Shown here: positions 5,061 to 21,492 of the stretch, one piece after another
Layout of the letters: the number at the start of each line of letters is the position of its first letter
Numbering within the stretch: position 1 is the first letter of the stretch
The notes under the pieces: model-generated
Seen by the model: the letters and a program-made list of their open reading frames with translations, nothing else
Told to the model about the DNA's origin: nothing
Databases searched by the model: none
Made by a program: the position numbers and the translations under genes
Origin: a virus
Taxonomy: Duplodnaviria; Heunggongvirae; Uroviricota; Caudoviricetes
Strand: one strand, 5' to 3'
Virus record (IMG/VR): IMGVR_UViG_2534682158_000010
Location: 1 to 30,878 of that record
DNA length: 30,878 nucleotides

Positions 5061-8000
5061 TTATGCGTATTGTTGGATGACGGCCAGAACGTCCGCCACG
5101 TTGTGTTTTGTCTCGATAATCCACCAGTTACCTGGGAAGTCGCTGTTCTTCGCCTTCGCTGGCAACCAGCGAGCGCCGAATTTCGCCTTGATTGCGTCTT
5201 TCGCACGGAAAAGAACCCCTTTCATGCCGGAGGCTTCCTGAAGCCCAAATACCTCGCCAGCGGCGAATTTTGGTGCGTACATCATCTTCAGGTCGGCGGT
5301 GGATACGCGATAATTCAGACCAAGAGACTGAGCTATGCTGGTGGCATCACCCTGTATTGATGATAACTCTTCTTGTTTCTCGTTTCTGGCAGCAATTTCT
5401 TCCTCCGTGATGTTGCCAAGGGCCAGGTTTATCCGATCAGCGTCTGCCTGTTTCTCTTCATCGGTGCGCCCGGCAAGTACCGTGTTAATTCTGTGCAATA
5501 TCTCCACATGATTCTTGCGCATGCTGAGCAATTCCGGCGTAACCTCGTTAAGGTCCACCAGCCCAAGGATGGCAAGGTCGGTAAACATTGATACCAGGTT
5601 GTAGGTCATGCGATAGCTGAGTTGCCCATAGGCTGATGGCAACTGCACCGCATCCATTTTATAGGCATCCATAAATTTAGAGCCGTCGTTTACGACATCC
5701 GCAATTGCCGGTGTGATTTTTCCTGTGGTGGCGGCCTCCCTGATTGCTGTTACCCACGATTGAGTCAGCGCGGCGACTGCATGATTCAGATTGACTTTCC
5801 GTTCTGCTGCAATGCGCGCGCTTGCTGCGTCCATTGCCTGCTTGATCTCGTCTTTATTGCTGTAAATGCCAATGGTGCCAAACTGTGCTGTGGTGATCTC
5901 ATAATCTGACGCCCGGAACTCATTGGTACCGAAAATGGCATTGGTGACTTCAAGTTCAGAATCCCCGTTACGAGTAGCCCCCTGGCTTGTTTTCTCCGGC
6001 ATTCTGGCGATCGCATCCGCTATTTTCTCCTGAATTGCTTCAGGGGATAGCGTATCTCCGTATGACGCGATTACATCGCCATAATTGGAGCCAAACAGTT
6101 CAACCAGGAATGCTTCTGCCGAACGGATCTGGCGGTTATTCCCTTCCGACATCATACCAAGCACCCATTTTGCAATTGACGACTTCAGCGCGCCGTCACG
6201 GCGATCCGGGTAAACCGCATGCTTCAGTGGGTCCGTATAGGTACCAACAAAATCAATGCTATAGCCTGACTCTGTAGTCTGAACGCCGTATGAGTCAGTG
6301 ATTTTGATCATGCCGCGCTGCTGGAAACGGTAGAAATCGTCACAGGAAACGATGTCGTTAATCCCGGCGATGGAGACGCCACCACTGATTTTCTGCATAA
6401 CAGCATCTTCATCGGGAGTTACATCAACCTGTTTATCCAGCGTCTTCACATCCCAGTTACCAGATTTGGTGCCTTTGAAGGTGAAGATGATCTCCACGTC
6501 TGCGCGCTGGCTGTCGAAGTCCAGCGACTTAATGCGAACGATATCACCGGCACAATCGTAGTATTGGCCTACACGCCATGAGCGATCGCCGATAACAAGG
6601 AACTCACTCGCATGGTTAACCAGGTCAGGATCAACATCCAGAATGCCTTTATTTAATGCATCCTCCACCAGCGGGCGCAGGCGTTTGATATCCGTCGCGG
6701 CCTTCTGAGTACGGTTCAATAATTTCTCATAGCGGGAGATGGCTTGAGAGATATTAGCCTTGCGCTGAATGGCGCTTTTCAACGACGCGCGATACTGTGC
6801 TAACAACATACGGTCTGTGTGATGGACGCTACCCCAGCGGGCTTTCCAGTCTGCGTTATCAGCTGCTTTGGCCATTACCGCCTGTTTGAATTTGGCGACG
6901 TCGGCGGTGGTCTTTTCAAGTTCCGCTTTGCTTCGCTCCAATTCAGCGGTAAGTACCTCCACATCCTCACCAGCTGCGTGCTGCGCCTTGATGTAGTTCT
7001 GAAGGTCGATAGTAGCCTGTTCTTTCTGGCGAGCGCGTTTCGCAGCTTTCGCCTTATCCATTTGAACCTGCATCATTGCCAGACGTTCGCCGTCATCCTT
7101 CGCGGTATACATCTGCATTTCGATCATATCGTTGGCGTCGGCGTTCTCCATTTCTGACTTATCTGAACGGAGGATATCGGAGATCCAGCCTGCTTTACGC
7201 TTCAGCGTCTTCAGTCGGTATTCATCGAAAGACCCCTTGCCGCAGTAGTAGTGAACGCGAACGCTTGCACGGTTGGAGCCAACTCGGGCACCGCGACCGT
7301 TTCGTTGCGCAATACTGGCTGGAGTCCATGGCAACGTCAGATGATGGATGTCAGTCGTTCCTCGATGCAGGTTGATACCCACCTCTGCCTTTTTGTTGCA
7401 GATGATGATCGGAGTCCGGCCCTCCTGGAAGTCGGCTGCAATCTTTTCCAGACCGCCCAACGACATTTCATTTTGCTGCGCGATATAGGCGTCATACAGA
7501 GCCATTTGCTCGTTGTATTTCGCTATCTGTGCATCTGTTGGTTCATCCGGTAACTCTTTCGGCGGTTTAACCGCTTTCAGTTTCTTACCGGTTTTACCTG
7601 CCTCGGCAACCGTCTGAGCATTCAGTATCCCCACCTTTGAAGGTTCAAGGTTAAGAGCATTGCAGATAATGCGCTTGAGCTTCTGGTGCTGCGTTTTTTC
7701 ATCGGTGAAGATGATTTGCTTACCTTCCGGGAAAAACTCCTTCAGCGTGGCAATCAGCTTCGCGTATTTGGGCGTAACGGGGTGAGTTACGGTCTGTTCG
7801 TCAATGCCAAACCTGGCCAGGCGCTTATTCACTTCCTGCTCGAACGCTTCCGGAACCTGCAACTGAATAAACTCGCCCTTATCTATCAGGGAGTATTGCG
7901 ATTGCTGCGTGATTGAATCATCACTGTCGTCGTCTTCGCTGGTGGCTTGTTTAGGCAAACTGTCCGCCAGCTGCTGCACCGCATCGGCGTACTCCGGCAG

Positions 8001-15643: not shown

Positions 15644-16132
15644 GTGGCACAACGCGGTGTAAACAAAGTCATCCTGATTGGTACCCTGGGGCAAGACCCG
15701 GAGATCAGGTATATACCAAATGGCGGAGCGGTCGGAAGACTCAGCATCGCAACGAATGAATCATGGCGCGACAAGCAAACGGGCCTACAGAAAGAGCAAA
15801 CAGAATGGCATAAAGTCGTTTTGTTCGGAAAACTTGCTGAAATTGCGAGTGAGTATTTACGAAAAGGTTCTCAGGTCTACATCGAAGGGAAACTTAAAAC
15901 CCGTAAGTGGACAGATGACGCCGGTGTAGAACGTTACACGACGGAAATTATCGTCAGCCAGGGCGGCACCATGCAAATGATCGGCGCTCGCCGTGACGAT
16001 TCACAGTCCTCAAATGGCTGGGGGCAATCAAACCAACCTCAAAACCACCAGCAATACAGTGGTGGCGGTAAACCTCAGAGCAACGCCAATAACGAACCTC
16101 CAATGGACTTTGACGACGATATTCCGTTTTGA
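15644..16132 (+). CDS. ssb: Single-stranded DNA-binding protein
   Basis: OB-fold region nearly identical to E. coli SSB ([16 protein letters not shown]...[15 protein letters not shown]...); acidic tail DFDDDIPF; GTG start. Confidence 0.95.
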
Positions 16133-16329
16133 ATGTGTAAAAAACGACTGAAAGAAAAGCGGTGGTCCAGACGCCGACAAAAGCACGAACTCGCAAACAA
16201 ACGCCAAAGTTGGCAATGGCACACGCTTTTCACGAAAAGAACACCCCGAGATATTGCGTTCGCTGGTGGGAAAACATTCCTGACCCACCTGAAGGCGCAA
16301 TACATCAGGTTTTAAGCAGAGGAAAGACT

Positions 16330-17007
16330 ATGAATAACATGACAACGAAAGAGCTTTTGACGGCACTTCCAAAATACAAAAGCCATAAAACAGTTCGCGC
16401 CTCAAAAATCAAAGATATCGAAATTATCGCCCTAATGGATGTGGTCCTTTTTTGCAACATCGAAGTCGTTGAGCCAGAAGGGGTAAAAGTCCATGTTGAT
16501 AAAATATTTTTGCAAAAACACCGACCAGAAATTGGCGGATATCTGGTCGCTTATGAGGACGGATCTCTGTCCTATTCACCAGAAAAAACATTTGAAGAAG
16601 GCTTTAGTCGGACTAACGACTTCTTCGAAAATGGGGTATCGCTCAGCATTGAAGGTCACAATGGGGTGACATTCATTACAGCCAGGGACGTAACTATTTC
16701 TGCTGGCGGTATCGCTACTCTACAAGAAGAAATCGACCTTGAAGCAGCCGACTTTTCTGACGCGCTGATGTGGCTGAAGGATGGCAAGAAAGTTGCTCGA
16801 CGCGGGTGGAACGGCGAAAACCAATTCTGCTGGCTGGTTCCTGAAGGACAGTACCCGGCACGAATGGAAGCCATTAAGGGATATTTCCCCGGCGACCTCG
16901 TTCCGTATGGTGCTTATTTCGCCTTAAAAAATGCACAAGGTGTAGTTGTTCCGTGGGTTCCTTCTGTAGGCGACTTACTGGCATGTGACTGGTTTGTAGT
17001 GGAGTGA
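16330..17007 (+). CDS. Hypothetical protein (225 aa) with a C-terminal DUF2829-like domain
   Basis: ATG 16330 with GAGGAAAG SD; C-terminal LMWLKDGKKVARRGWNGENQF...VPWVPSVGDLLACDWFVVE resembles the DUF2829 pattern from memory. Confidence 0.6.
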   Translation: MNNMTTKELLTALPKYKSHKTVRASKIKDIEIIALMDVVLFCNIEVVEPEGVKVHVDKIFLQKHRPEIGGYLVAYEDGSLSYSPEKTFEEGFSRTNDFFENGVSLSIEGHNGVTFITARDVTISAGGIATLQEEIDLEAADFSDALMWLKDGKKVARRGWNGENQFCWLVPEGQYPARMEAIKGYFPGDLVPYGAYFALKNAQGVVVPWVPSVGDLLACDWFVVE

Positions 17008-17013
17008 TTTAAC

Positions 17014-17796
17014 GTGGAAAATACTAAAGCAATTCAATACCGCCTGCGTAATGGCCAGAGTGTCGAAGTGACCATCAATAATGATGGAGTACCTGGCGAA
17101 AAGGTTTCTATCTCTGATCTGGCTATCGAAAAAACCATCATGTGCCACCTTGGCTTTACTGAAGAAGTGAGCAAAAAGCATGGTGTAGCAATCTGGAGCG
17201 CAATGGATACTGGTATGCGCAAATTCATTACTGCTCGTACCCCAGGGATGACCATGATGGACCTCATGCAGATTGCGCCGCTGTTTGAATGTGAGCCTTT
17301 AGATGTATTCAGCAATCCAGCTATCTGCCAGCAGTTATATGGTGAGATGAAACTCGCGGTTACCCCCATTGTGCTGCATGAAGGATCGCTTGCTGGCGTG
17401 TGGAAAGTGGAGCGTATTTCAAGCTACATGCCTTTCCATGTCAACGGCGTAATCACTGGTGAAAATCAACCTGTTTCCGTTATAAAGTCAGACCTCAAGC
17501 GCGCAATTCTTGAAGCAAGTTGTCGAGTTGTCGGCCTGGGCAAACAGTCTTATGTTTCCTTCCCGGCTGGCCCTGAAGGCCCGGCAGAAATTCTGATTAT
17601 GGATGCCGATCTGCTCTGGCAAATACAGTTTCTGATTGGCAAAAGCATCATCCGCGCTGAAGAACTCGATCAGTACATTACCTGCACGATGACGGATGAA
17701 GTCAAAAGTGTGGCTATAGCCAATGCCCGGAACCTATGTCGTGCTGCATTAACAGAACTGCAAGAAAACACCACGGAAGAAGTGGAAAGCGATTAA
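17014..17796 (+). CDS. Hypothetical protein (260 aa)
   Basis: GTG start with GGAG SD at 9 nt; begins 6 nt after the upstream gene stop; no recognisable motif. Confidence 0.55.
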   Translation: MENTKAIQYRLRNGQSVEVTINNDGVPGEKVSISDLAIEKTIMCHLGFTEEVSKKHGVAIWSAMDTGMRKFITARTPGMTMMDLMQIAPLFECEPLDVFSNPAICQQLYGEMKLAVTPIVLHEGSLAGVWKVERISSYMPFHVNGVITGENQPVSVIKSDLKRAILEASCRVVGLGKQSYVSFPAGPEGPAEILIMDADLLWQIQFLIGKSIIRAEELDQYITCTMTDEVKSVAIANARNLCRAALTELQENTTEEVESD

Positions 17797-17827
17797 AAAA
17801 AATCCCGCCGATTGGCGGGATTTCTTC
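17797..17827. terminator. Bidirectional intrinsic terminator between convergent genes
   Basis: A6 - AATCCCGCC-GATTG-GGCGGGATT - TTTCTTC; U tracts follow the hairpin on both strands. Confidence 0.7.
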
Positions 17828-18137
17828 AATATACGATCTGGTCTACATGATCACCAAAATCATCGTCGTCGTCGTCCTCATCGCCACCATCTACTGCTGG
17901 CCAATCAACAAACCAGCCAGCGTAAAGATGCAGCGTTCGGAGAACATCACTTGCGGGAGCATCAAGGGTGTTAACGAATCCCATATAGCTATTGGGATTT
18001 GCCCCAGCTATGGCTTCAGCGATCATGTCCTCGGTAATGTCACCGGAGATAATGCTTAAACGCCCGGAAACTTCTTCATTATCATCAAATTCGATAATGG
18101 CATCTCCGCCTAATGGCGCTGCGATTTTAATCTGCAT
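17826..18137 (-). CDS. Small highly acidic protein (103 aa) ending the darA operon
   Basis: AAAGGAG SD at 8 nt; start overlaps the ddrB stop; about 23 Asp/Glu including DGGDEDDDDDDFGD. Confidence 0.7.
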   Translation of the reverse strand: MQIKIAAPLGGDAIIEFDDNEEVSGRLSIISGDITEDMIAEAIAGANPNSYMGFVNTLDAPASDVLRTLHLYAGWFVDWPAVDGGDEDDDDDDFGDHVDQIVY

Positions 18138-21114
18138 TATTTAGCTCCTTTGCCACACCTAATAACAGTTCCAGCAATCCGTCACCATTCATCAGTGATG
18201 CGGCAGCGGCCTCTTTGTCATGATACAACTGAAGAGCCATAGAGAATACTTCCGTTGCTGACGTTTTGGAAATAGTCGGTGATTTCTGCCGAATTTTCCC
18301 GGTGTTACTTACTGAGGCTGGCGGGTATACCTTCGCCATATAAATATTACTCAATCGAGATCTGAAGCACCATTCAGGCTTGCCACGCCCACCGATATTA
18401 ACGAAAGATGGCTTATCCCCTTCAACATTGGCCTTCAGGAATGACCGGGCTTTCTCTAACAAACCAGGGTTACTGTACTCAAGATGATGACCCAGCTCGT
18501 GCCACAGTGCACTTGCATTTTCATCGTTCAAATTGACAGCAACAACACCATTAATATTTGCATATGCCCTTCCCTGGTGGTGAACCACCTTTGATAAGGT
18601 CGAAATTTTACCGCCGGTCAGGCGATAAATATCAGCAAGTTCCTTGCGCAGGTCTATCCCACCATTCTGTCCAGCGCGGGCTTCTTCCACTTCTTCCGTG
18701 ATAAAAGAGTCGGCCCACTCAAGAGCTTTTTCTTCAGATACGGATGAGTTGGCGATCGCACTGTTCATGGCAGATAACACTTTCTCGTGGACCGAACCCA
18801 TACTTTGCTGATTCATTTGCCAGCGTGTCTGCGGGTTATATGAGAATCGCTTAAGTAGTTGGTCAAGATGCTCAAGTTCTTCTTCGCTGACATACTTTTT
18901 AGCCTCACCAATAATGCCGGGGAGAATATTGCCGTTAGGATTAAACGCTCGCGAAAGGAAGAGTTTCAGCGCCCCCATGCCCTCCGATGCTTCAATATCA
19001 CCAATAACACGGTTAACAATGGCCGCACTCTTCGGATTAGCATCCGCCAACGCTCTGGCTACGATTTGCAGGGACGATACGACCTCACGCTGCATATCAG
19101 TCCTGATCTCATCAATAAACTCTGGCGTTATGCCGTGCTCTTTAAGGATATCCCTGCCTTCCGCCGTTACCCCATCGATATCACCGACATGTTTATTAAC
19201 CTGACTTTGCAATGCCTTAAATGCCCTCAGAATTCCACGGGCATCATCAGCTTTACTAACGGCCTTCCTGAATGCTGGCAAGAAGTCAGAGTTAACCTCA
19301 TTTTGTTGATCGGCCCACTGAATGGAGGCTTCTTTCATCTCGTCCAGAGTCAAATCACCCAACGCGGTATGGTCTGTGAATATGAGCGACAACCTCTGAA
19401 CCATTTCTGCCAATGGTGATGCCGAATGCGCCGCGCTAAGGAATGCTTTCACCCTGGTTGGGCGAATGGAAAACCAGTCAATAGCTGGTGGCATATCTCC
19501 GTTTTTTATCGCCTGCGCTATCTCGTCAAAGCCATCGCGCCCAAGGGAGGATGCGTGATTTAACAAGCCGCGAAGTAACGAATTGCTGATACCGAATAAT
19601 CGGCACCATTTTTTCACGTCGGCAACAGGCATTCGAACAAAATGCGCAAGCACTTGTACAAGCTGTTCATCCTGGGGATCTGTACGGGAAAGCAGCCTGA
19701 TCAGATGAATAATGTCTTTGATGCCGGATGCCCGATGTAATAGCAAACTGGTATATGGAGCAACACCATTGTAACTACCGCCGGAAACGGACTCGAAAAG
19801 ACCGCCGGATATCCCTTGCATGCCTTCGTTTTCCAGTTCCTGAGACACCTGGCGAAGGATATCCTGTAACGACACATCACCACCGCCAAACATATCCCCC
19901 AGCGCCTGGCCCTGGTGCTGTAACTCATCATTGATACGTTGAGCCATCAACTTAAAGGCGGAGGCCATACGCTTCGCGCTACGGTTATTCGCGACGATGA
20001 ACAACGCGAGTGCTTTCACTTCCGGGGCCGTTTCGCTGAACATATCCCCCTGAGCAATAACATCGGTAATATGCTGGCCTGACTCCTTCGATTGCCTTAC
20101 CAGGTCTACCGCATCTTTCAATGCCGCCAGCGCCTTTTTATCGAGGCTATCCGCTGTCTCAATGCCATCAACAATAGTTGTCACAGCCTGCTTGTGCGCT
20201 TCTCCTGATAAAGCCTGCATCTGGACAAAATCATTGGCTGCCGCATTAAGCGCCGTCAGAACATTACGCATGTCCGGATCAGGTTCTTCTGCAACCATCC
20301 TTACCAGGCGCGCATCCTTATATGCCTTGGCAAAGATCGCGTTTTGTATACGGTCTACAAGTTGCCGTGTTGGTCGCCCATCTTCAGTTACAAGGCCAGC
20401 CGCCTGTGTGGCACCAACTTGCGTCATAAATCCGCGAATAAACGCGTCATTACTGCGGCTAAGCAGATCTCCGCTTTCTGACGGGTTAAAAAGCGCCATC
20501 ATCGCCGGTGTTATGCTGTCGGCATCAACAAAAGCCTTTTCACTGGCTGCCATTTCCTGAAGATCAGAAATATTTGAGTCCTTGGCAAACTGAACGCGGT
20601 CAACCTTGGTTAACCGGCGGCGCACCAGTACCGGAGCCGTCATTGATTCAACCTTTTCAGGTCGTATGCCGAATTCGGTCGCATGATCAATCAGGTACTC
20701 ACGATACCGATCCGCATTGCCGTCCTGATAGGCTTTGATGATCCCCATGGTCCGTCCATTACCTGACTCAACGGCATTGTCCTCACCAATTATCGGCGCA
20801 CCATGGCTGGATAAACCGGAATCAGTAAGCTGAGCAGGCCGCAAATCTTTGGATATCTGGTTAACCTGAAGAAGGCTGGATGCGCGGGTCCGGTCGCGCG
20901 GCTGAAGTTCCTGGGGATAGTCAGGATTAATTTTCCCATCCAGAGTATTGGATACCAAAAGAGCTGAGGCATCGACGATATCAAACGCTGTTTTTACCTC
21001 GTCTCCCTTCGCTGTCACCACATACGAAACCCGCCCATAACCGGGCAGGTTCTTTAGCAGCTCGATCAGCGTTTCTATGCTGGTGGCCATTACCACCTGA
21101 TCGCTTAAGCTCAT
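18127..21114 (-). CDS. ddrB: DdrB-like large Dar-operon protein (995 aa)
   Basis: Position downstream of darA and ddrA in the same strand; assignment by operon synteny with P1, not by motif. Confidence 0.75.
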   Translation of the reverse strand: MSLSDQVVMATSIETLIELLKNLPGYGRVSYVVTAKGDEVKTAFDIVDASALLVSNTLDGKINPDYPQELQPRDRTRASSLLQVNQISKDLRPAQLTDSGLSSHGAPIIGEDNAVESGNGRTMGIIKAYQDGNADRYREYLIDHATEFGIRPEKVESMTAPVLVRRRLTKVDRVQFAKDSNISDLQEMAASEKAFVDADSITPAMMALFNPSESGDLLSRSNDAFIRGFMTQVGATQAAGLVTEDGRPTRQLVDRIQNAIFAKAYKDARLVRMVAEEPDPDMRNVLTALNAAANDFVQMQALSGEAHKQAVTTIVDGIETADSLDKKALAALKDAVDLVRQSKESGQHITDVIAQGDMFSETAPEVKALALFIVANNRSAKRMASAFKLMAQRINDELQHQGQALGDMFGGGDVSLQDILRQVSQELENEGMQGISGGLFESVSGGSYNGVAPYTSLLLHRASGIKDIIHLIRLLSRTDPQDEQLVQVLAHFVRMPVADVKKWCRLFGISNSLLRGLLNHASSLGRDGFDEIAQAIKNGDMPPAIDWFSIRPTRVKAFLSAAHSASPLAEMVQRLSLIFTDHTALGDLTLDEMKEASIQWADQQNEVNSDFLPAFRKAVSKADDARGILRAFKALQSQVNKHVGDIDGVTAEGRDILKEHGITPEFIDEIRTDMQREVVSSLQIVARALADANPKSAAIVNRVIGDIEASEGMGALKLFLSRAFNPNGNILPGIIGEAKKYVSEEELEHLDQLLKRFSYNPQTRWQMNQQSMGSVHEKVLSAMNSAIANSSVSEEKALEWADSFITEEVEEARAGQNGGIDLRKELADIYRLTGGKISTLSKVVHHQGRAYANINGVVAVNLNDENASALWHELGHHLEYSNPGLLEKARSFLKANVEGDKPSFVNIGGRGKPEWCFRSRLSNIYMAKVYPPASVSNTGKIRQKSPTISKTSATEVFSMALQLYHDKEAAAASLMNGDGLLELLLGVAKELNNAD

Positions 21115-21126
21115 CCCTGTTACGCC

Positions 21127-21492
21127 TTATGCTGCCTCTTTAATGTTGGCGGCTATCCATGCCGCCGTGTGCTGTTTAACCTGGTCCAGGTCGATGTATG
21201 TGCCAACATATTGACTCAAATCCTGCAAGGTACCGATAAATGCATCGGTGCTCTGATCGACGAATTTATCAGCCAGGAAATCAGCAACCAGTTTTGGCAC
21301 ACCATCATGTACCGAAGGTTGTTTTTCCTCGCCACTACTGCCGCCGGACACACCGTACCCCATCTGTTGCATGATCTGGTCAATTTCATCGCTGATATCC
21401 AGCAACTCCATGCCACTCGCGGTAGCCGCTTTGGACATCAAAGCATCCAACTTATCGCTGAGATCCATTAACTCAATAGCTGATAGTGTCAT
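21127..21492 (-). CDS. ddrA: DdrA-like protein (121 aa)
   Basis: ATGA start/stop overlap with darA; size and position as in the P1 darA operon (recalled). Confidence 0.7.
   Translation of the reverse strand: MTLSAIELMDLSDKLDALMSKAATASGMELLDISDEIDQIMQQMGYGVSGGSSGEEKQPSVHDGVPKLVADFLADKFVDQSTDAFIGTLQDLSQYVGTYIDLDQVKQHTAAWIAANIKEAA

Follow-up and report, generated by a model that had tools for sequence, protein, structure and literature searches.

The hxr gene at the end of the Dar operon

The stretch of DNA analysed here, called the window in the following, comprises the 30,878 nt of the IMG/VR virus record IMGVR_UViG_2534682158_000010 (Caudoviricetes), and the region of it considered here is 98-99.8% identical in DNA to the phages P1, P7, SJ46, RCS47, JL22, and other P1-like phages. 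The subject is hxr, a short gene at the end of the defence-against-restriction (Dar) operon. It is the same gene as that for Hxr of bacteriophage P1 (P1_gp021, YP_006490.1) and lies in the same place after ddrB, there as well as in P7, SJ46, RCS47, and JL22; the DNA, at 98-100% identity, is annotated hxr in P1, SJ46, RCS47, and JL22, and the gene upstream is annotated ddrB. The two genes appear to represent a module in which a large virion protein ending in a zincin-like metallopeptidase (MPTase) domain is followed by an overlapping gene for a small, usually acidic protein (75-105 aa), and similar pairs are found in unrelated phages.

Hxr (MQIKIAAPLGGDAIIEFDDNEEVSGRLSIISGDITEDMIAEAIAGANPNSYMGFVNTLDAPASDVLRTLHLYAGWFVDWPAVDGGDEDDDDDDFGDHVDQIVY, 103 aa) contains 18 Asp and 6 Glu against three Lys or Arg residues; its calculated net charge is -21 and its pI is 4.05. 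Among the 46 ATG-started open reading frames (ORFs) of at least 80 aa in the window it ranks first in acidity, with 23.3% Asp/Glu compared to 16.5% for the runner-up. The first-pass annotation of this DNA, made from the sequence alone, had pointed to an extremely acidic protein of this length with about 23 Asp/Glu residues and an acidic run; the acidity is borne out, and the run, DGGDEDDDDDDFGD, is present (residues 83-96; DNA 17850-17891, minus strand), though the exact count is 24.

The same annotation had regarded the gene as translationally coupled to the end of the Dar operon, with a strong Shine-Dalgarno sequence and a start overlapping the ddrB stop, and each of these statements stands. 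The minus-strand sequence around the start (AAGGAGCTAAATAATG) shows AAGGAG 7 nt before the ATG and still within ddrB, the start and the ddrB stop share 11 nt (Table 1), and a terminator hairpin follows directly after the hxr stop. No sigma-70-like promoter was found in 17600-18600. The hairpin is GC-rich (minus-strand RNA GAAAUCCCGCC-AAUC-GGCGGGAUUUUUUUU), has a dG of -21.8 kcal/mol (z -4.9; none of 200 shuffles was as stable), and also terminates the convergent gene at 17014..17796; it was missed by the terminator pattern scanner, probably since part of the U-run pairs within the stem. The Shine-Dalgarno sequence, the overlap of the ATG with ddrB, the lack of a recognisable promoter, and the terminator indicate that hxr is translationally coupled and is the gene with which the lydA-lydB-hdf-darA-ddrA-ddrB operon ends. 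That it is a real gene is argued by homologues of 30-45% identity, which keep its length, core motifs, and position, and by its being intact in 80 of 80 close relatives.

Although known, hxr is an unstudied gene; a full-text literature search brought up papers in which hxr is named along with ddrB or phage P1, none of them a study of Hxr. Its one match in PHROGs is PHROG 2292 (E 3e-60), for which the function is given as unknown. In the P1 record, Hxr is labelled "possible repressor; homolog of Xre", because residues 23-80 (about 58 residues) share 28% identity with part of a phage Xre repressor; the label has been propagated into further records, tables, and papers and is very probably wrong.

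Linkage of hxr to the peptidase region of DdrB

The C-terminus of DdrB is one of the zincin-like MPTase domains of phage and plasmid "polyvalent proteins", and autoprocessing of DdrB to the packaged 76-kDa form has been predicted (Iyer et al. 2017, PMC5512222). In an alignment of five lineages of P1-like DdrB, H872, E873, H876, and E955, the latter within the motif TE[VI]xSM, are invariant; the H, E, and H and the E of TE[VI]xSM remain so when the Vibrio-phage and PaV-LD homologues are included. Pfam gave no significant match for the DdrB-type peptidase subfamily, and no solved structure of any member was found by sequence search.

In every P1-like element with a full-length DdrB that was examined (L003, L004, L006, L007, L009, JK004, L013-L016, L021, and 80 IMG/VR loci), hxr directly follows ddrB with an overlap of 8-17 nt; it is 11 nt in all 80 IMG/VR loci and in L003, L004, L007, and L009, 8 nt in L015 and L021, 14 nt in JK004, and 17 nt in L006. 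This adjacency spans divergent lineages from Klebsiella, Citrobacter, Rosenbergiella, Serratia, and Cronobacter. Two divergent Hxr proteins that the profile hidden Markov model (HMM) missed are encoded at the same position, that of Serratia PL17 (104 aa, ending LVEY; hhalign E 9e-4) and that of Rosenbergiella metrosideri (107 aa, ending PEIN).

Four P1-like plasmids (L017-L020, from Enterobacter, Pantoea, which is represented twice, and Erwinia; ~5965-7347) encode a short DdrB of 443-460 aa. It consists of the ParB domain and a conserved helical region and stops where the variable middle region of the P1 protein begins; these plasmids lack the MPTase domain and have no Hxr-like ORF either. Across the sampled genomes, Hxr and the MPTase domain occurred together in five of five loci and were both missing from five of five. 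Sequence divergence follows the same line: in 28 pairs from eight lineages, the identity of Hxr correlates with that of the MPTase region of DdrB (Spearman 0.83) and of the middle region (0.74) but not with that of the ParB region (0.12), and between the window and JK004 the N-terminal part of DdrB is 90%, its C-terminal part 49%, and Hxr 47% identical. Both co-deletion and divergence fit a putative module made up of the C-terminal half of DdrB and Hxr.

Similar gene pairs outside the P1 group

When the last 187 residues of DdrB were used in tblastn, homologous domains were detected in 69 Vibrio phage records, in cyanophage PaV-LD, and in a Xanthomonas phage. In the Ackermannviridae D509, K469, 1.244.A, VAP7, YC, and GR28A and in PaV-LD, the domain sits at the extreme C-terminus of proteins that range in length from 384 to at least 1179 aa; the ddrB-ParB domain is absent from the five of these proteins scanned with Pfam. 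Each of the peptidase genes is followed by a small ORF of 87-130 aa, with either a 4-nt overlap or a gap of 1-2 nt. ORF082 of PaV-LD, for instance, encodes 91 aa with a net charge of -9 and ends DEDIVY; in the PaV-LD record ORF081 is marked as a virion protein and ORF082 is unmarked. Five non-P1 small ORFs scanned against Pfam and PHROGs gave no significant match.

An earlier scan of IMG/VR for the peptidase domain had yielded only near-identical P1-like loci; redone with the PaV-LD sequence as lead, it turned up 351 stretches that code for related domains. Of the 77 diverse loci that most resemble PaV-LD, roughly three quarters have a gene of one small-ORF family beside the peptidase gene. 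The members of this family (73-99 aa in 38 non-redundant pairs) start between -11 and +4 nt from the stop of the peptidase gene; across the family the median length is 80 aa and the median net charge -7 (range -15 to +1). Tyr is the last residue in 37 of 48 members, and Val or Ile occupies position -2 in 42 of the 48; a few end VVN or IH as relatives of Hxr do (a single N and two H endings). Hxr shows the traits of this wider family in that it starts near the stop of the peptidase gene (11-nt overlap; bounds about -17 to +4 nt), falls within 75-105 aa, is net acidic, and ends hydrophobic-hydrophobic-Tyr.

A word-indexed search with the wider family returned only 13 unnamed proteins, and a conserved small downstream partner of MPTase domains is not mentioned in the main text of PMC5512222, as judged by term searches. 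New here is the conserved association between such a metallopeptidase domain of phage virions and a small protein that is usually acidic and Tyr-tipped; Hxr would be the hyper-acidic form of that protein in the P1 lineage. Charge complementarity between the small ORFs and the peptidase domains was also considered (rho -0.35); it is weak, stems from non-independent data, and was not used as evidence.

Two peptidase-domain proteins lie a few kb apart in two cases, L125/L134 (same IMG/VR contig, 3300017971_007885) and L116, and a member of the small-ORF family is present in each stretch; this suggests that the whole two-gene module duplicates in some uncultured phage contigs.

Core, tail, and tip of Hxr

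Homologues of Hxr were gathered by an exhaustive HMMER search and a profile search. They are 95-100 aa long, share 30-45% identity, and are encoded on contigs of 80-96 kb from Klebsiella, Citrobacter, Rosenbergiella, and metagenomes. The HMMER search also brought up FG-GAP/VCBS-like repeat proteins (P0024, P0026, P0027), which were judged spurious matches to a "GD(I/V)" motif. Invariant throughout the family are G53, V65, L66, R67, L69, W75, W79, and P80.

A monomer model was built with AlphaFold2 on a diverse alignment of 18 sequences and has a mean predicted local distance difference test score (pLDDT) of 76; it supersedes a first model made from seven near-identical sequences, which was unusable (pLDDT 45). 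The model divides the protein into a folded core and a C-terminal tail that is predicted to be disordered (Table 1). Over most of the core the pLDDT is 81-90 (67 at residues 21-30); strands are predicted at residues 2-6, 12-16, and 28-32 and helices at 36-44 and 62-71.

Every P1-like homologue has a tail of 19-25 aa with a net charge of -4 to -14; apart from the last residues the tail sequence is not conserved, and the composition (D/E/P/G/T) is kept. The 80 close IMG/VR relatives hardly vary in the core, and 79 of them have a tip of the form [IVFL][IVL]Y. The poly-Asp run of the same set, 80 near-identical P1-like contigs (L030-L109), is polymorphic in length, in frame, with 4 to 9 consecutive Asp residues. 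As the length of the linker varies and core and tip stay constant, the linker behaves like a spacer and the tip like a motif under constraint. The P1 clade ends IVY or VVY; the distant homologues mostly end with a hydrophobic residue and Asn, a few with IH or EY, and one with ETN.

Two deviating forms were noted. In a minority allele among the 80 contigs the end of the tail is replaced by ...EEGFSDETVNQLLY, and in a metagenomic P1-like contig (L006 8001-8555, protein P0015) a tandem duplication of Hxr is fused into one ORF of 184 aa, the first copy having a short tail (GWDDEEDL) and the second the full poly-acidic one; this ORF has a 17-nt overlap with the ddrB stop.

No family was matched by Hxr in Pfam at E up to 1, including families of single-stranded DNA-binding proteins (SSB) or the OB fold, nor in NCBIfam at E up to 10; PDB sequences, searched with a profile, yielded nothing but a chance match (E 1.9) to the NS3 protease of hepatitis C virus. 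The fold search with the model gave no helix-turn-helix (HTH) protein at a meaningful score and no match to Ocr or ArdA or to a solved inhibitor.

Table 1. Positions in the window of hxr, of the parts of its product, and of associated features (a dot marks a feature on both strands)
Feature	Position	Strand	Remarks and basis
hxr coding sequence	17826..18137	-	103 aa and TGA stop; ORF list and translation
Hxr core, residues 1-80, predicted beta-beta-beta-alpha-alpha-beta	17898..18137	-	AlphaFold2
Hxr acidic C-terminal tail, residues 81-103, predicted disordered	17829..17897	-	net charge -11; pLDDT 25-51
Hxr C-terminal tip Ile-Val-Tyr	17829..17837	-	conservation in relatives
Shine-Dalgarno sequence AAGGAG	18145..18150	-	inside ddrB, 7 nt before hxr ATG; read from sequence
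Overlap of hxr start and ddrB end, 11 nt, ATGCAGATTAA	18127..18137	-	hxr ATG 18135-18137, ddrB TAA 18127-18129
Bidirectional intrinsic terminator, hairpin and U-run	17795..17826	.	between hxr and convergent 260-aa gene 17014..17796
ddrB, 995 aa	18127..21114	-	N-terminal ddrB-ParB domain, variable middle region, C-terminal MPTase; annotated ddrB in P1
ddrB-ParB domain, DdrB residues 36-167	20614-21009	-	Pfam PF18763, E 2e-39
Zincin-like metallopeptidase (MPTase) domain, DdrB residues ~830-995	18130..18627	-	HELGH at 18487-18501
SSB gene of the phage	15644..16132		ORF list

Similarity between Hxr and the wider small-ORF family

The HMM of the wider family does not match Hxr at E up to 10. Weak similarity emerges when the extended Hxr alignment is compared with the wider family by hhalign: over 61-71 collinear columns, end to end, P is 0.003, the score of 19.0 being reached by one of 300 column shuffles (null mean 9.3, standard deviation 2.2). 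A search of BFVD with the Hxr model placed a 90-aa ORF of phage VAP7 at rank 21 (TM-score 0.43/0.48; E 1.1, not significant alone). This ORF (L023 3543-3815, QDB73363.1) lies directly downstream of a DdrB-type peptidase protein; it is annotated "tetraspanin-15", which is very probably a misannotation.

A possible role for Hxr and its rivals

The reading preferred here, held tentatively and with somewhat less than even confidence, is that Hxr is a small co-translated partner or dedicated regulator for DdrB's C-terminal MPTase domain and acts via its acidic tail and its C-terminal tip. Translational coupling would deliver Hxr beside nascent DdrB, where its folded core (residues 1-80) could dock onto the peptidase domain; the flexible acidic tail would then bring the Ile-Val-Tyr-COOH tip into the active-site cleft or close to it, where it would resemble a product or substrate and serve as a plug. 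In this manner Hxr might, within the producing cell, keep the peptidase latent or direct how DdrB is processed (108 to 76 kDa) up to the point at which DdrB goes into the procapsid. Hxr would probably stay behind, outside the virion, and the hyper-acidic linker would be an elaboration of the P1 lineage. In P1's virion proteome as determined by liquid chromatography with tandem mass spectrometry, Ulx, DarB, DdrB, DdrA, DarA, and Hdf are included and Hxr is absent (PMC9024508).

Several points weigh against this reading. Binding of Hxr to DdrB and inhibition are proposed from genomic association, and the peptidase activity of DdrB is itself a prediction (PMC5512222). The absence of Hxr from the virion proteome is weak evidence, because its predicted tryptic peptides have 4, 22, 41, and 36 aa, only one of them of convenient size, and two unique peptides were required per protein in that study (PMC9024508). 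Co-deletion and correlated divergence could result from linkage alone, because hxr adjoins the 3' end of ddrB and one deletion or recombination tract would carry both; the 28 lineage pairs are, moreover, non-independent, which inflates the p-values of the correlations. Outside P1, about one quarter of the diverse peptidase loci have another gene downstream, and the Vibrio-phage counterparts are not acidic and lack the Tyr tip; most non-P1 homologues of Hxr, too, end with Asn or His and not with Tyr. Finally, homology of Hxr with the wider small-ORF family is marginal, suggestive but not proven, single small ORFs from Vibrio phages or PaV-LD reaching a non-significant E of 0.07-0.16 with the Hxr profile.

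In a bolder version, rated as unlikely, Hxr-type proteins would serve generally as latency switches of injected phage effectors. Every such protein would be a coupled, unpackaged plug made 1:1, with its hydrophobic-Tyr tip in the zinc site, so that the peptidase would become active only in the capsid or the next host and there release or activate effector domains; in the P1 lineage, a poly-acidic, DNA-like tail gained by the plug would also mask the DNA-binding ParB-type domain of DdrB in the producing cell.

Around residues 699-701 (~19012-19020, minus strand) the DdrB of the window reads ...KSAAIVN/RVIG..., and the fragment 1-701 has a calculated mass of 76.4 kDa, the reported processed size; its last three residues, IVN, are of the kind with which homologues of Hxr typically end. 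The idea that the Hxr tip mimics a processing site at this IVN is no more than a lead; the site is not conserved in other lineages and the estimated probability of a chance occurrence is ~12%.

Synteny, coupling, and co-occurrence apply equally to an assembly chaperone or capsid-targeting adaptor. Hxr would then bind DdrB, possibly at its C-terminal region, and aid folding, processing, or recruitment to the procapsid, and thereby the loading of DarB and Ulx; catalysis would not be inhibited, and the tip would dock to capsid, scaffold, or portal. The Dar proteins are indeed loaded stepwise, DdrB aiding the incorporation of DarB (PMC9024508; PMC12810830), in the wider module the proteins encoded upstream belong to the virion, and a packaging or scaffolding role had been the second suggestion of the first-pass annotation. 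However, DarB relies on an N-terminal signal rather than on an adaptor (PMC9024508), and Hxr was not detected in virions, for what that is worth. Further, the peptidase domain is the one element common to all modules while the capsids differ (P1-like myoviruses, Ackermannviridae, PaV-LD), and therefore a target inside the module is favoured over a capsid-specific one; a chaperone or adaptor is considered unlikely.

It could also be that Hxr and DdrB are linked but functionally unrelated, Hxr having a role of its own, for instance in dealing with the variable cargo next to it or in interfering with some host target, and sharing with the 3' half of ddrB no more than the end of an operon and tracts of recombination. 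Linkage by itself can yield co-deletion and correlated divergence, the slot after hxr is a hot spot for cargo, and hxr was non-essential in a CRISPR interference screen of P1, the table of which lists it as non-essential from earlier literature as well (PMC10695390). Such a coincidence is quite unlikely: the peptidase and small-ORF arrangement recurs in distant phages with nothing else recognisably shared, the overlap with the ddrB stop is maintained at 30% protein identity, and the C-terminal tip is common to the wider family.

The first-pass annotation had named a DNA-mimic antirestriction protein as one of two equal possibilities. Such a stand-alone protein would imitate DNA by its charge and directly block host type I restriction enzymes or other DNA-binding defence proteins in the manner of Ocr and ArdA. 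The net charge and pI of Hxr, its location in a defence-against-restriction operon, and the retention of acidic tails across the P1-like homologues would suit such a function. The proposal did not find support, in that Hxr resembles Ocr and ArdA neither in sequence nor in fold; 11 of its 21 net negative charges sit in the tail, where the pLDDT is below 50 and the length varies between strains. DNA mimicry is accordingly rated as very unlikely. An Xre-like transcriptional repressor of phage or host genes, for which the note in the P1 record is the one point in favour, is hardly credible: searches of Pfam, NCBIfam, and PDB sequences at permissive thresholds gave no HTH family, the predicted fold opens with three beta strands and has just two helices instead of the all-helical five-helix fold with a basic DNA-binding face of Xre/HTH_3 proteins, hxr is the last gene of a late virion-protein operon, and with three basic against 24 acidic residues DNA binding by Hxr is implausible.

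Comparison with known systems

Operon-encoded inhibitors of zinc metallopeptidases are established, emfourin being paired with protealysin and Inh with serralysins; as with Hxr, a small protein is encoded beside the peptidase. Other inhibitors insert a terminus into the active site, the carboxypeptidase inhibitors of potato, leech, and tick their C-terminal tail and the tissue inhibitors of metalloproteinases (TIMPs) their N-terminus, and in Hxr, likewise, a flexible segment ends in a conserved free terminus, which might extend to the catalytic zinc. Hxr differs from these proteins in that it has no sequence or fold similarity to solved inhibitors, that its inhibitory function is conjectural, and that the putative target is part of a virion "polyvalent" protein and not a secreted enzyme.

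In form, the closest analogue of Hxr may be the acidic tail of SSB proteins with its hydrophobic tip. SSB of E. coli (...DFDDDIPF) and gp2.5 of T7 have the same layout of a folded domain, a variable acidic low-complexity linker, and a conserved hydrophobic or aromatic docking tip. The likeness ends there, for Hxr matches no SSB or OB family or fold, and its proposed partner is a peptidase domain; the phage has an SSB gene of its own in the window (Table 1). Ocr (T7 gp0.3) and ArdA are, like Hxr, small, very acidic, and encoded by mobile elements in an antirestriction context. They display their carboxylates on rigid folded surfaces that trace B-DNA, whereas half of the charge of Hxr lies in a disordered tail and hxr depends on the peptidase region of DdrB.

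P1 is one of the classic model phages, and clinical Enterobacteriaceae commonly carry P1-like phage-plasmids. The unsupported "repressor" label of hxr dates from the annotation of the P1 genome record and has been copied into many others. As a peptidase partner, hxr would offer a handle on two questions about the Dar system, namely the processing of DdrB and the role of its predicted metallopeptidase. Because Vibrio phages, a cyanophage, and many contigs of uncultured viruses have the pair too, a result obtained with P1 would probably extend to a broad class of virion-delivered "polyvalent" anti-defence effectors.

Variable genes around hxr

The slot right after hxr (17014..17826 in the window) is the hot spot for variable cargo in P1-like elements (seen in L001, L003, L004, L006, L007, and L009). 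It holds a toxin-antitoxin pair of the RelE and MqsA/HTH type in L003, a gene for a CHAP-domain protein in L004, an OmpD-like porin gene in L006, an Arc-like gene in L007, and IS1 with isaA/isaB in P1. Between ssb and hxr, the window carries an ORF of 281 aa (16162..17007, plus strand) with a C-terminal Tad2-like (Thoeris anti-defense 2) domain (Pfam PF11195, E 2.4e-22, residues 197-280); as this ORF fills the isaA/IS1/isaB slot of P1, the element may carry an anti-Thoeris gene beside its Dar operon. At the other end of ddrB, the closest annotated relative of the window, SJ46, has an IS605-family transposase gene (insQ) between ddrA and ddrB (L002 9615-10823); since ddrA (21127..21492) and ddrB are 12 nt apart in the window, this insertion is not present there.

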